Shown here: positions 19,300 to 61,556 of the stretch, piece after piece
How the letters are laid out: each line of letters opens with the position of its first letter
Numbering within the stretch: position 1 is the first letter of the stretch
Origin: Escherichia coli
GTDB lineage: Bacteria; Pseudomonadota; Gammaproteobacteria; Enterobacterales; Enterobacteriaceae
Assembly (NCBI RefSeq): GCF_003334305.1
Contig: NZ_QOWS01000006.1
DNA: 64,000 nt
Direction: 5' to 3' (one strand)
Translations under genes and position numbers: made by a program
The notes under the pieces: generated by a model
What the model was told of the DNA's origin: nothing
The model's input: the letters and a program-made list of their open reading frames with translations, nothing else
Databases searched by the model: none

Positions 19300-20189
19300 T
19301 GAGCGGCTTACCTCTTATTTCGCGCCGTCGACTGTTAACGGCGATGGCGCTTTCTCCGTTGTTATGGCAGATGAATACCGCCCACGCGGCGGCTATTGAC
19401 CCCAATCGTATTGTGGCGCTGGAGTGGTTGCCGGTGGAATTACTGCTGGCGCTCGGCATCGTGCCTTACGGCGTGGCGGATACCATCAACTATCGCCTGT
19501 GGGTCAGCGAACCACCATTGCCGGACTCAGTGATTGACGTCGGTTTGCGTACAGAACCTAACCTTGAACTGCTGACCGAAATGAAACCGTCGTTTATGGT
19601 CTGGTCGGCAGGATATGGCCCTTCATCAGAAATGCTGGCACGTATTGCGCCGGGTCGCGGATTTAACTTCAGTGACGGCAAACAGCCGTTGGCGATGGCG
19701 CGTAAATCGCTGACGGAAATGGCAGATTTACTTAACCTGCAAAGCGCAGCGGAAACGCATTTAGCGCAATACGAAGACTTTATCCGCAGCATGAAACCCC
19801 GCTTTGTGAAGCGTGGTGCACGCCCGTTACTGCTGACGACGCTTATCGATCCGCGCCATATGCTGGTCTTCGGTCCAAACAGCTTGTTCCAGGAAATTCT
19901 CGATGAGTACGGCATCCCAAATGCCTGGCAAGGGGAAACCAACTTCTGGGGCAGTACCGCCGTCAGTATCGATCGTCTGGCGGCGTATAAAGACGTTGAT
20001 GTGCTCTGTTTTGATCACGACAACAGCAAAGACATGGATGCGCTAATGGCAACCCCGCTGTGGCAGGCCATGCCGTTTGTCCGCGCCGGACGCTTTCAGC
20101 GCGTACCCGCAGTCTGGTTTTATGGTGCGACGCTCTCGGCAATGCACTTTGTGCGCGTTCTGGATAACGCCATCGGAGGTAAAGCGTGA
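19299..20189 (+). CDS. fhuD: ferric hydroxamate periplasmic binding protein
   Basis: ATG overlaps the fhuC stop (ATGA); 296 aa, signal peptide MSGLPLISRRRLLTAMALSPLLWQMNTAHA. Confidence 0.9.
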   Translation: MSGLPLISRRRLLTAMALSPLLWQMNTAHAAAIDPNRIVALEWLPVELLLALGIVPYGVADTINYRLWVSEPPLPDSVIDVGLRTEPNLELLTEMKPSFMVWSAGYGPSSEMLARIAPGRGFNFSDGKQPLAMARKSLTEMADLLNLQSAAETHLAQYEDFIRSMKPRFVKRGARPLLLTTLIDPRHMLVFGPNSLFQEILDEYGIPNAWQGETNFWGSTAVSIDRLAAYKDVDVLCFDHDNSKDMDALMATPLWQAMPFVRAGRFQRVPAVWFYGATLSAMHFVRVLDNAIGGKA

Positions 20190-22168
20190 GTAAACGAATT
20201 GCGCTTTTTCCGGCGTTATTGCTGGCGCTGCTGGTGATTGTCGCTACGGCGCTGACCTGGATGAACTTTTCGCAGGCGCTGCCGCGCAGTCAGTGGGCGC
20301 AGGCCGCCTGGTCGCCGGATATTAACGTCATCGAGCAGATGATTTTTCACTACAGCTTGTTACCACGTCTGGCGATTTCTCTACTGGTGGGCGCGGGCCT
20401 GGGGCTGGTGGGCGTGCTGTTTCAGCAAGTGCTGCGTAACCCGCTGGCGGAACCGACGACGTTGGGCGTTGCTACAGGCGCGCAACTGGGGATTACCGTC
20501 ACCACGCTCTGGGCGATCCCCGGTGCTATGGCGAGCCAGTTTGCCGCGCTGGTGGGCGCTTGTGTCGTTGGCTTAATCGTCTTTGGCGTCGCGTGGGGGA
20601 AACGGCTTTCGCCGGTTACGCTTATTCTCGCGGGGCTGGTGGTGAGCCTTTATTGCGGGGCAATTAATCAGCTACTGGTTATCTTCCATCACGACCAGCT
20701 GCAAAGCATGTTCCTGTGGAGCACCGGAACGCTGACGCAAACCGACTGGGGCGGCGTTGAGCGTTTATGGCCGCAGCTGCTGGGCGGCGTGATGCTGACG
20801 TTACTGCTACTTCGTCCGTTAACCCTGATGGGGCTTGATGATGGCGTGGCGCGCAATCTCGGGCTGGCCTTATCGCTCGCGCGTCTGGCTGCGCTGTCGC
20901 TGGCGATAGTCATCAGTGCGCTGCTGGTGAATGCGGTGGGGATTATCGGCTTTATCGGGTTGTTCGCGCCACTGCTGGCAAAAATGCTGGGGGCGCGGCG
21001 TTTGTTGCCACGGTTGATGCTGGCGTCGCTGATTGGTGCGTTAATTCTGTGGCTTTCTGATCAAATCATCCTCTGGCTGACTCGCGTGTGGATGGAAGTG
21101 TCCACCGGTTCGGTCACTGCGTTGATCGGTGCGCCGCTGCTACTGTGGCTGCTGCCGCGTTTACGGAGCATTAGCGCGCCGGATATGAAGGTCAACGATC
21201 GTGTCGCGACTGAACGCCAACATGTGCTGGCGTTTGTCCTCGCGGGCGGCGTGCTGCTGTTGATGGCTGTGGTAGTGGCGCTGTCGTTTGGTCGTGATGC
21301 GCACGGCTGGACGTGGGCGAGCGGGGCGTTGCTTGAGGATTTGATGCCCTGGCGCTGGCCGCGAATTATGGCGGCGCTGTTTGCGGGCGTCATGCTGGCG
21401 GTGGCGGGCTGTATTATTCAGCGGCTGACCGGAAACCCGATGGCAAGCCCGGAAGTGCTGGGGATTAGCTCTGGCGCAGCGTTTGGCGTGGTGTTGATGC
21501 TGTTTCTGGTGCCGGGTAATGCCTTTGGCTGGCTGTTACCTGCAGGCAGTCTCGGGGCGGCGGTGACGCTGTTGATCATTATGATCGCCGCCGGACGCGG
21601 TGGATTTTCCCCACACCGCATGTTACTGGCGGGGATGGCGTTAAGTACCGCGTTCACCATGCTTTTGATGATGTTGCAGGCAAGTGGTGACCCGCGAATG
21701 GCGCAAGTGCTGACCTGGATTTCCGGTTCGACCTACAACGCGACCGATGCGCAGGTCTGGCGCACCGGAATTGTGATGGTGATTTTGCTGGCGATTACCC
21801 CGCTGTGCCGCCGCTGGCTGACCATTTTACCGCTGGGTGGTGATACCGCCCGAGCCGTAGGAATGGCGCTAACGCCGACGCGAATTGCGCTGCTGCTGTT
21901 AGCGGCTTGCCTGACGGCGACCGCGACGATGACTATTGGACCGTTGAGTTTTGTTGGTTTAATGGCACCGCATATTGCGCGGATGATGGGCTTTCGACGG
22001 ACGATGCCGCACATCGTAATTTCGGCGCTGGTGGGTGGTTTACTGCTGGTGTTCGCTGACTGGTGTGGGCGGATGGTGCTGTTTCCATTCCAGATCCCGG
22101 CGGGGCTGCTGTCAACCTTTATCGGCGCGCCATATTTTATCTATTTGTTGAGAAAGCAGAGCCGTTAA
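20186..22168 (+). CDS. fhuB: ferric hydroxamate ABC transporter permease (fused double permease)
   Basis: 660-aa highly hydrophobic ORF overlapping the fhuD stop. Confidence 0.9.
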   Translation: MSKRIALFPALLLALLVIVATALTWMNFSQALPRSQWAQAAWSPDINVIEQMIFHYSLLPRLAISLLVGAGLGLVGVLFQQVLRNPLAEPTTLGVATGAQLGITVTTLWAIPGAMASQFAALVGACVVGLIVFGVAWGKRLSPVTLILAGLVVSLYCGAINQLLVIFHHDQLQSMFLWSTGTLTQTDWGGVERLWPQLLGGVMLTLLLLRPLTLMGLDDGVARNLGLALSLARLAALSLAIVISALLVNAVGIIGFIGLFAPLLAKMLGARRLLPRLMLASLIGALILWLSDQIILWLTRVWMEVSTGSVTALIGAPLLLWLLPRLRSISAPDMKVNDRVATERQHVLAFVLAGGVLLLMAVVVALSFGRDAHGWTWASGALLEDLMPWRWPRIMAALFAGVMLAVAGCIIQRLTGNPMASPEVLGISSGAAFGVVLMLFLVPGNAFGWLLPAGSLGAAVTLLIIMIAAGRGGFSPHRMLLAGMALSTAFTMLLMMLQASGDPRMAQVLTWISGSTYNATDAQVWRTGIVMVILLAITPLCRRWLTILPLGGDTARAVGMALTPTRIALLLLAACLTATATMTIGPLSFVGLMAPHIARMMGFRRTMPHIVISALVGGLLLVFADWCGRMVLFPFQIPAGLLSTFIGAPYFIYLLRKQSR

Positions 22169-22174
22169 TTGAAT

Positions 22175-22195
22175 GCCTCGCCCGGTGGGCGAGGC
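22175..22195. terminator. convergent stem-loop between fhuB and hemL (GCCTCGCCC-GGTG-GGCGAGGC)
   Basis: Inverted repeat in the 34-bp spacer between the convergent fhuB and hemL stops. Confidence 0.45.
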
Positions 22196-22202
22196 AAAAT
22201 CA

Positions 22203-23483
22203 TCACAACTTCGCAAACACCCGACGTGCAGCATCGATGGTGTTATTGATATCTTCCATGCTGTGCGCCACGGACATAAAGCCCGCTTCAAACGCTGATG
22301 GTGCCAGGTAAACACCTTCATCCAGCATCATATGGAAGAAACGCTTAAAGCGTTCCACGTCACAGGCCATCACATCCTGATAGCACGTCACGGACTCGGC
22401 GTCGGTAAAGAAAATACCGAACATGCCGCCAACGTGGTTAACGACCAGCGGAATTCCGGCTTCTTCTGCCGCTTCCAGCAGACCTTCTGCCAGACGTGTT
22501 GTCAGCTCATCCAGCGTTTCGTGAACGCCCGGCTGCGCGACTTCATTCAGACAGGCGAAACCCGCTGCCATCGCAATTGGGTTACCGGAAAGCGTACCCG
22601 CCTGATAGACCGGACCCGTCGGGGCCAGCGCATCCATTACATCACGACGACCACCGAATGCGCCTACCGGCATTCCACCGCCGATGATTTTGCCCAGGCA
22701 GGTGAGATCCGGTTCCACACCGTAATAATCCTGTGCGCCAGCTAGCGCTACGCGGAAGCCAGTCATTACTTCATCGATGATCAGCAATGCGCCAAATTCG
22801 TCGCACAGCGCGCGCAGACCTGGCAGGAACTCTGGCAGCGGTGGAACGCAGTTCATATTGCCTGCCACCGGCTCGACGATAATACAGGCAATCTCTTGCG
22901 GGTATTGCTCAAACGCGGCGCGTACAGAAGCCAGATCGTTATAAGTACAGGTTAAGGTATGTTTGGCGAAATCTGCCGGAACACCCGGCGAGTTTGGCTG
23001 GCCTAACGTGAGTGCGCCAGAACCGGCTTTCACCAGCAGGCAGTCAGCGTGACCGTGGTAACAACCTTCAAATTTAATGATTTTGTCGCGACCGGTAAAA
23101 CCACGGGCCAGGCGGATGGCGCTCATCGTCGCTTCAGTGCCGGAGTTCACCATGCGCACCATATCCATGGTCGGGACCAGTTCGGTCACCAGTTGCGCCA
23201 TTTTCACTTCCATTTCGGTCGGTGCACCAAAGCTTAAACCACGCTCGGCGGCTTCAATCACGGCATTGCGGATAGCCGGATGGTTATGGCCCAGCACCAT
23301 CGGCCCCCAGGAACCGACATAATCGATATAGGCTTTGCCATCAACATCGTACAGATAAGCGCCGTCCGCTTTTTCGATAAACAGTGGAGTGCCGCCCACG
23401 CCAGTAAAGGCGCGAACAGGGGAGTTCACACCGCCAGGGATCAGCTCGCGCGCTGCGCTGTAAAGATTTTCAGACTTACTCAT
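22203..23483 (-). CDS. hemL: glutamate-1-semialdehyde 2,1-aminomutase
   Basis: 426-aa [29 protein letters not shown]... recognised as HemL. Confidence 0.9.
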
Positions 23484-61517: not shown

Positions 61518-61523
61518 GTGAAA

Positions 61524-61556
61524 GCCGGATAAGACGCATCAAACGTCGCATCCGGC
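61524..61556. repeat. REP (repetitive extragenic palindrome) unit
   Basis: GCCGGATAAGACG...CGTCGCATCCGGC palindrome between the convergent tilS and rof. Confidence 0.65.

Follow-up and report, generated by a model that had tools for sequence, protein, structure and literature searches.

The window, by which we mean the whole 64-kb stretch of DNA analysed here, contains the convergent genes fhuB and hemL, whose stop codons face each other across a spacer of 34 bp. The features of the locus are as follows.

20186–22168, + strand: fhuB coding sequence, ferric hydroxamate ABC transporter permease, 660 aa (open reading frame list and RefSeq annotation)
22166–22168, + strand: fhuB stop codon, TAA
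22169–22202, no strand: convergent fhuB–hemL spacer, the 'short' allele, 34 bp, TTGAATGCCTCGCCCGGTGGGCGAGGCAAAATCA (from the open reading frame coordinates)
22174–22196, no strand: stem-loop TGCCTCGCCC / GGT / GGGCGAGGCA, found by folding, with a perfect 10-bp stem (arms 22174–22183 and 22187–22196) and a 3-nt loop (GGT, 22184–22186)
22203–22205 in + strand coordinates, gene on the − strand: hemL stop codon, TGA
22203–23483, − strand: hemL coding sequence, glutamate-1-semialdehyde 2,1-aminomutase, 426 aa (open reading frame list and RefSeq annotation)

Both products closely matched their MG1655 counterparts by tblastn (99.2 % identity for FhuB and 99.5 % for HemL), and RefSeq names the genes fhuB and hemL in E. 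coli O43 RM10042, where the region is 100 % identical to the window. A sequence-only reading of the window had reported 34 bp between the two convergent stops, occupied by one GC-rich hairpin. The length was exact, with 22168 and 22203 as the gene ends, and the spacer does hold a single perfect stem-loop. Nine of its ten stem pairs are G–C, and its predicted folding energy as RNA is −20.8 kcal/mol on the + strand and −21.4 on the − strand (z = −5.5 and −5.7, respectively), a stability that no dinucleotide shuffle out of 200 reached. Five nucleotides separate the fhuB stop from the stem, and six lie between the stem and the hemL stop; within the 64-kb window this hairpin sequence is present once. 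A spacer of such shortness is not unusual for this gene pair, as spacers of 30–46 bp with a single hairpin were present in 13 of 52 other Enterobacterales species among the matches listed.

The same reading had put the K-12 spacer at about 123 bp longer, and this figure was borne out to the base: MG1655 coordinates run to 173444 for fhuB and from 173602 for hemL, leaving a spacer of 157 bp, or 34 + 123. The contents of this longer spacer are listed below.

Order within the MG1655 spacer: ...GCCCGATGCGACGCTGGCGCGTCTTATCGGGCCTAC, then AAACGGCCCCGAATC, then GTAGGTCGGATAAGGCGTTCACGCCGCATCCGAC...
Two canonical REP cores in inverse orientation: ...GGGCCTAC, a 15-nt linker, GTAGGTCGG...
2509–2532 (+ strand) and 2564–2585 (− strand) of MG1655 segment L001: the REP cores as located by a loop-tolerant pattern
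Left of the REP/iREP pair: a decayed third REP (GTACGCCTGGACGGATAAAGCGTTTACGCG...)
Junctions of the BIME-type spacer: TAATTTTTCCATATAAC... and ...AAACCATGCTGGATCA

A REP is defined as an imperfect palindrome of 30–40 nt with a conserved 5′ GTAG, and a BIME as an inverse REP/iREP arrangement with a linker (PMC3333891). The MG1655 spacer is a REP/BIME cluster by its cores, feet, inverse pairing and multicopy occurrence. The loop-tolerant core pattern (GATGCGRCG-loop-CGYCTTATC) matched it twice, on opposite strands, against none expected by chance, and the inverted arms CGTCTTATCGGGCCTAC and GTAGGTCGGATAAGGCG carry CTAC/GTAG feet and lie 15 nt apart. When used as a probe, the K-12 spacer matched a median of 9 and a maximum of 20 places per E. 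coli genome and is therefore repetitive. The 157-nt sequence folds at −63 kcal/mol (z −3.5). A rigid 37-nt REP consensus gave no match in the K-12 spacer at up to three mismatches; it missed these REPs because their loop length differs, not because REPs are absent. At the left end of the same spacer, the last 11 nt of MG1655 fhuB (CAGAGCCGTTA, L001 2434–2444) form a 91 % inverted repeat with TAACGGCCCTG (L001 2456–2466) and so make a hairpin across the fhuB stop codon; this pairing may be due to chance, with an estimated ~0.1 such pairs expected.

The window hairpin is of a different class. REPs occur in hundreds of copies, whereas 3,685 E. coli genomes each contained the hairpin at a single place. 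The GTAG/CTAC foot of the REP definition (PMC3333891) is present nowhere in the window spacer, where the hairpin is flanked by TTGAA and AAATCA. Instead of a 30–40-nt imperfect palindrome with a stem mismatch, the element is 23 nt long with a perfect 10-bp stem. As a single-copy, short and perfect palindrome lacking GTAG/CTAC, the hairpin was ruled out as a REP, and no REP was found in the window's fhuB–hemL spacer. A scan of 21900–22500 with the Rfam 15 covariance models, at E up to 10, returned chance-level matches only (E ≥ 1.5, scores far under the gathering thresholds). Elsewhere in the window, a canonical REP, GCCGGATGCGACGTTTGATGCGTCTTATCCGGCTTTC, lies at 61520–61556 on the − strand and was matched by both the rigid and the loop-tolerant REP patterns; the window strain therefore has REPs outside this spacer.

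Alignment of the window with MG1655 revealed no shared spacer sequence past TAAT, which ends in the first T of the spacer, until the hemL stop, and the window hairpin is missing from the MG1655 spacer. The difference between the window and K-12 is thus a replacement of the whole spacer, neither an insertion nor a deletion. The sequence-only reading had proposed that a small repeat element is absent from the window and that a pairwise alignment with MG1655 would reveal it, unless reference strains had a spacer of the same length. It was right that K-12 carries such an element, a REP/BIME, that the window does not have, and the alignment did recover the length difference; however, the alignment showed no plain indel, and nothing appears to have been lost from the window, as the short form is the commoner and probably the ancestral one. 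Equal spacer length does not hold for K-12 but would hold for most other E. coli. A strain or lineage that had lost a K-12-like REP/BIME and kept a short scar could account for the 123-bp difference, and REP/BIME copy number at a given locus is known to vary between strains (PMC3333891). Nevertheless, none of the K-12 spacer sequence is present in the window spacer, nor does K-12 have the hairpin, so that a simple deletion cannot relate the two alleles.

We surveyed both alleles in 5,426 complete E. coli genomes, a set in which K-12 is over-represented through laboratory derivatives. The short allele was present in 3,714 genomes (68 %; 134-bp probe centred on the short spacer, ≥80 % cover) and the BIME allele in 1,701 (31 %; 257-bp probe centred on the K-12 spacer, ≥80 % cover), so that the two together accounted for 5,415 genomes. 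Most genomes thus have the short hairpin allele, and K-12 carries the minority state, which makes it a misleading norm at fhuB–hemL. One strain with neither allele, FDN-24 (NZ_CP158147.1, L006 ~3181–3186), has a deletion across the spacer that cuts off both fhuB and hemL at their 3′ ends, and the two genes are annotated there as pseudogenes without a C-terminus; the deletion may reflect genuine loss of hemL function or be an artefact of assembly.

The 34-mer searched alone matched 3,685 genomes at one place each, and 3,684 of these were identical over the aligned stretch. Because this search used megablast, which requires an exact 28-mer seed, the shortfall of 29 genomes (3,714 vs 3,685) is an upper bound on changes in the core. 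In the most divergent short-allele genomes sampled, the sole spacer changes were 22170 T>A and 22201 C>T, both off the stem, and the hairpin is near-invariant despite coding flanks that diverge by up to 3.7 %. The fhuB–hemL junction also appeared in two to three copies on plasmid-labelled records, and a few genomes had it at two places; mislabelling of replicons or duplication may account for this.

To place the two alleles in a wider context, we drew on a HemL search of species-representative genomes that covered at least 80 Enterobacterales loci, in which Escherichia species (such as E. albertii, E. fergusonii and E. marmotae) and Salmonella were not among the matches listed. The convergent fhuB–hemL arrangement was kept in ~52 of the loci among those matches. 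Citrobacter sp. Cu233 and Citrobacter sp. FP75, whose HemL is 97–98 % identical, have 36-bp spacers of the form TGTAAACGCCTCGCC-loop-GGCGAGGCGAATGGA with the stem CGCCTCGCC...GGCGAGGCG. In Enterobacter sp. Bisph1 the spacer is 33 bp long, AAAGCCTCTCCC-GGCG-GGGAGAGGCTACAGGCT, and its stem (GCCTCTCCC...GGGAGAGGC) has changed from G:C to T:A on both arms, a compensatory change. All three spacers align to that of the window as homologues with the same stem core, and in each the hairpin sits just as close to the stop codons. These homologues suggest that the hairpin was already present before Escherichia and Citrobacter diverged, with the BIME allele arising afterwards. The short hairpin spacer is thus probably ancestral, a polarity that we infer from Citrobacter and Enterobacter, although horizontal transfer of so short a piece is conceivable. 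The same homologues, together with the presence of the short allele in 68 % of genomes, largely refute loss of a K-12-like BIME, which we consider very improbable.

Replacement of the spacer is not confined to E. coli. In two genomes of C. youngae and in Citrobacter sp. R56, spacers of 90–103 bp are built from REP pairs and contain nothing of the hairpin, which their sequences indicate to be a parallel whole-spacer replacement. Overall, the outgroup spacers contained unique hairpins, REP pairs, CCCTCTCCC...GGGAGAGGG palindromes or bidirectional terminators of the A-tract/hairpin/T-tract type, and 44 of 50 among the matches listed folded with z < −2 (median z −4.4). As these spacers almost always fold strongly whatever their sequence, it seems to be structure that is conserved as a requirement at this site. 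One of these elements, the GC-rich palindrome CCCTCTCCC-loop-GGGAGAGGG, in many cases enclosed by CCCTCACCC...GGGTGAGGG, recurs in fhuB–hemL spacers of Enterobacter, Lelliottia, Pseudocitrobacter, Buttiauxella and relatives (loci L012, L013, L016, L018, L019, L022, L023, L025, L028 and L032) and looks like another interspersed repeat family. Much larger inserts were also seen, with 2.3–2.5 kb between hemL and fhuB in Yersinia nurmii (L040, 4282–6818) and Pectobacterium betavasculorum (L075). The Y. nurmii insert includes an ORF of 737 aa on the fhuB strand (L040 4347–6560), so the spacer can take up whole genes. In Salmonella Typhimurium the stf fimbrial operon presumably lies between fhuB and hemL.

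These comparisons also bear on whether the hairpin matters at all. That it is a functionless relic and the two alleles a neutral polymorphism would fit the finding that both alleles are frequent in healthy, widespread lineages and that the hairpin is wholly replaceable. Against this, the stem is invariant over thousands of genomes, it has undergone compensatory change across genera, the spacers of 44 of the 50 species among the matches listed fold strongly, and the REPs that replace it are themselves stable hairpins. We therefore regard a neutral relic as quite unlikely.

The BIME allele, though probably derived, does not seem to be young. It exists as two subtypes with the same junctions and length that differ at 12–14 of 157 positions (7.6 %), and the identical junctions and length point to a single origin. 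The second subtype was identified in strains B2C (L004) and 100117 (L005), where the spacer occupies positions 351–507 of the respective segments. In 694 flank bases, MG1655 differs from B2C at 11 + 6 positions and from 100117 at 24 + 10, whereas the window, with the short allele, differs from MG1655, with the long allele, at only 2 + 2; flank similarity does not track allele class. The 7.6 % divergence between the subtypes would be about that expected of neutral sites at this coding divergence. We had considered the BIME a recent gain of the K-12 lineage, and dropped this when the second subtype was found in divergent backgrounds. The 3′ end of fhuB in strain 100117 is itself unusually divergent, with 24 differences in 347 bp from other E. 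coli, and only 15 genomes were ≥99 % identical to the 100117 segment. BIME carriers that are 96.4 % identical to this segment include a strain named as ST648 and its relatives. ST648 belongs to phylogroup F and K-12 to phylogroup A, and the short allele occurs in O157:H7, F11 and LY180, a derivative of E. coli W, which represent phylogroups E, B2 and B1, respectively. The simplest reading is of an old polymorphism of two alleles, in which recombination would have homogenized the flanks up to the non-homologous spacer. In this case a derived allele need not be a recent one: the BIME is old and is carried by distantly related E. coli.

We then considered what the hairpin might do at the 3′ ends of the two genes. 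The sequences following the stem were scored with a TransTermHP-style tail score, for which the usual cut-off is about −2.5. The tail in the hemL direction is a further feature of the locus.

22159–22173, − strand: tail following the stem in the hemL direction, UUCAAUUAACGGCUC, weakly U-rich and overlapping the fhuB stop and last codons

This tail (TTCAATTAACGGCTC) scored −3.17, a value matched by 4.4 % of random tails, whose mean was −2.06. It has four U in its first 8 nt, below the 5-of-8-T criterion of the terminator scan, and its U-richness is limited because it overlaps the stop and last codons of fhuB. The corresponding tails scored −3.75 in Citrobacter and −4.59 in Enterobacter (TTTTTACC), the four homologues not being independent. 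In the fhuB direction no U-tract follows the stem on the + strand: the tail (AAATCATCACAACTT, beginning AAAATCA) scored −1.72, poorer than the random mean of −2.06, and across the window and the homologues the tails in this direction scored between −1.7 and −2.3. The hairpin therefore cannot by itself terminate fhuB transcription. A consensus terminator scan made no call at the window hairpin on either strand.

A canonical bidirectional Rho-independent terminator serving both fhuB and hemL would fit a strong GC-rich stem-loop between convergent genes. The window hairpin resembles such terminators in its stable, GC-rich, perfect stem and short loop directly past the convergent stops, and a textbook A-tract/hairpin/T-tract does occupy the same position at other loci (L020, L031, L062 and L082). 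It departs from them in the AAAATCA tail on the + strand, at −1.7 worse than the random mean, and in having gone uncalled by the scan on both strands. Its T runs lie upstream of the stem on both strands, the opposite of a bidirectional terminator. Furthermore, Rho-dependent regions are found in both directions in K-12, which carries the other allele. On balance we consider a canonical bidirectional terminator unlikely.

The K-12 data (Adams et al. 2021, PMC7815308 supplementary file 2), which refer to the BIME allele, place a Rho-termination region at 173016 on the − strand (score 8.6, p = 1.7e-22), antisense to fhuB and ~590 nt beyond the hemL stop, and a weaker one at 173376 on the + strand (score 3.8; PMC7815308). 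In K-12, transcription coming from hemL evidently continues for ~590 nt antisense to fhuB until Rho halts it, and the Term-seq tables for K-12 list no 3′ end for hemL (PMC7815308). Transcripts terminated by Rho are trimmed by 3′ exonucleases (Adams et al. 2021, PMC7815308), and REP hairpins act as barriers to such enzymes (PMC12306157). Stem-loops at the 3′ ends of Rho-terminated mRNAs, and REPs as stabilizers, are described in earlier work (Newbury et al. 1987; Dar and Sorek 2018) as cited in PMC12306157 and PMC7815308.

By analogy with these systems, the hairpin and its weak U-rich tail would act in the hemL direction as a weak intrinsic terminator. Transcription of both convergent mRNAs would end further downstream, through Rho or polymerase collision, and 3′-to-5′ exonucleases would then trim the transcripts back until halted at the hairpin, which would form the protective 3′ stem-loop of both mRNAs. 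In the K-12 allele the REP elements of the BIME would perform the equivalent role. The window hairpin is like protective 3′ stem-loops and REP stabilizers in being a stable stem-loop without a U-tract, with Rho termination downstream in K-12, and unlike REP stabilizers in being single-copy; the likeness is drawn by analogy. We put the odds that the hairpin combines a weak hemL terminator with a 3′ protective stem-loop for both mRNAs at about even.

A mainly translational role would be compatible with this. Terminating ribosomes would have to melt the stem, and their stalling would lower FhuB and HemL output; with 5–6 nt between the stem and both stop codons, distances read directly from the sequence, such hindrance may occur. 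PMC12306157 cites Liang and Deutscher for the finding that a REP lowers output by stalling when it lies within 15 nt of the stop codon, and the equally close placement in the Citrobacter and Enterobacter homologues is in line with this 15-nt rule for REP hairpins. Conversely, the rule was set up for REPs, a different class of hairpin, and tight spacing may simply reflect compaction of a minimal spacer. In the BIME allele, moreover, a greater distance separates the fhuB stop from the first strong stem on that side, and nothing indicates that this has an effect. A mainly translational role is thus possible but on the unlikely side.

The explanation that we favour, with a probability of roughly three in four, is that the common allele, with the 34-bp spacer, is probably ancestral, that the 157-bp BIME spacer is an old alternative to it, and that the hairpin is a shared 3′ stem-loop of fhuB and hemL. 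Presence–absence polymorphism of REP/BIME elements between E. coli strains has long been established (Bachellier et al. 1997 Genetics, as cited in PMC3333891). The difference between the window and K-12 is of this same kind (Bachellier et al. 1997; Ton-Hoang et al. 2012), with an iREP/15-nt linker/REP and a decayed REP at convergent 3′ ends in some strains only. It differs from the usual BIME polymorphism in that the BIME-free allele here is no empty site and holds a unique, conserved hairpin. In sum, the strain difference at fhuB–hemL is of an ordinary and already understood kind, and 3′ hairpins between convergent genes are routine. What makes it mildly interesting is that separate lineages have repeated the whole-spacer swap between hairpin and REP pair, and that the polymorphism seems to be old.

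A bolder view is that the hairpin and BIME alleles are ancient and non-equivalent, that both have been kept since near the E. coli ancestor, and that REP pairs have repeatedly and with precision displaced one and the same ancestral terminator hairpin, independently in E. coli and in several Citrobacter. We think this improbable. If true, hairpins between convergent genes would be preferred landing or replacement sites for transposase-mobilized REPs, and the choice of allele would tune hemL and fhuB expression or antisense read-through.

On the favoured explanation, BIME-free alleles need not be empty, as a hairpin and a REP cluster substitute for each other at this site. Such substitution fits with REPs taking over the terminator and stabilizer role at 3′ ends. 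With natural alleles in near-identical coding contexts (4 differences in 694 flank bases between the window and MG1655), the fhuB–hemL spacer would provide a clean natural experiment in BIME versus hairpin.
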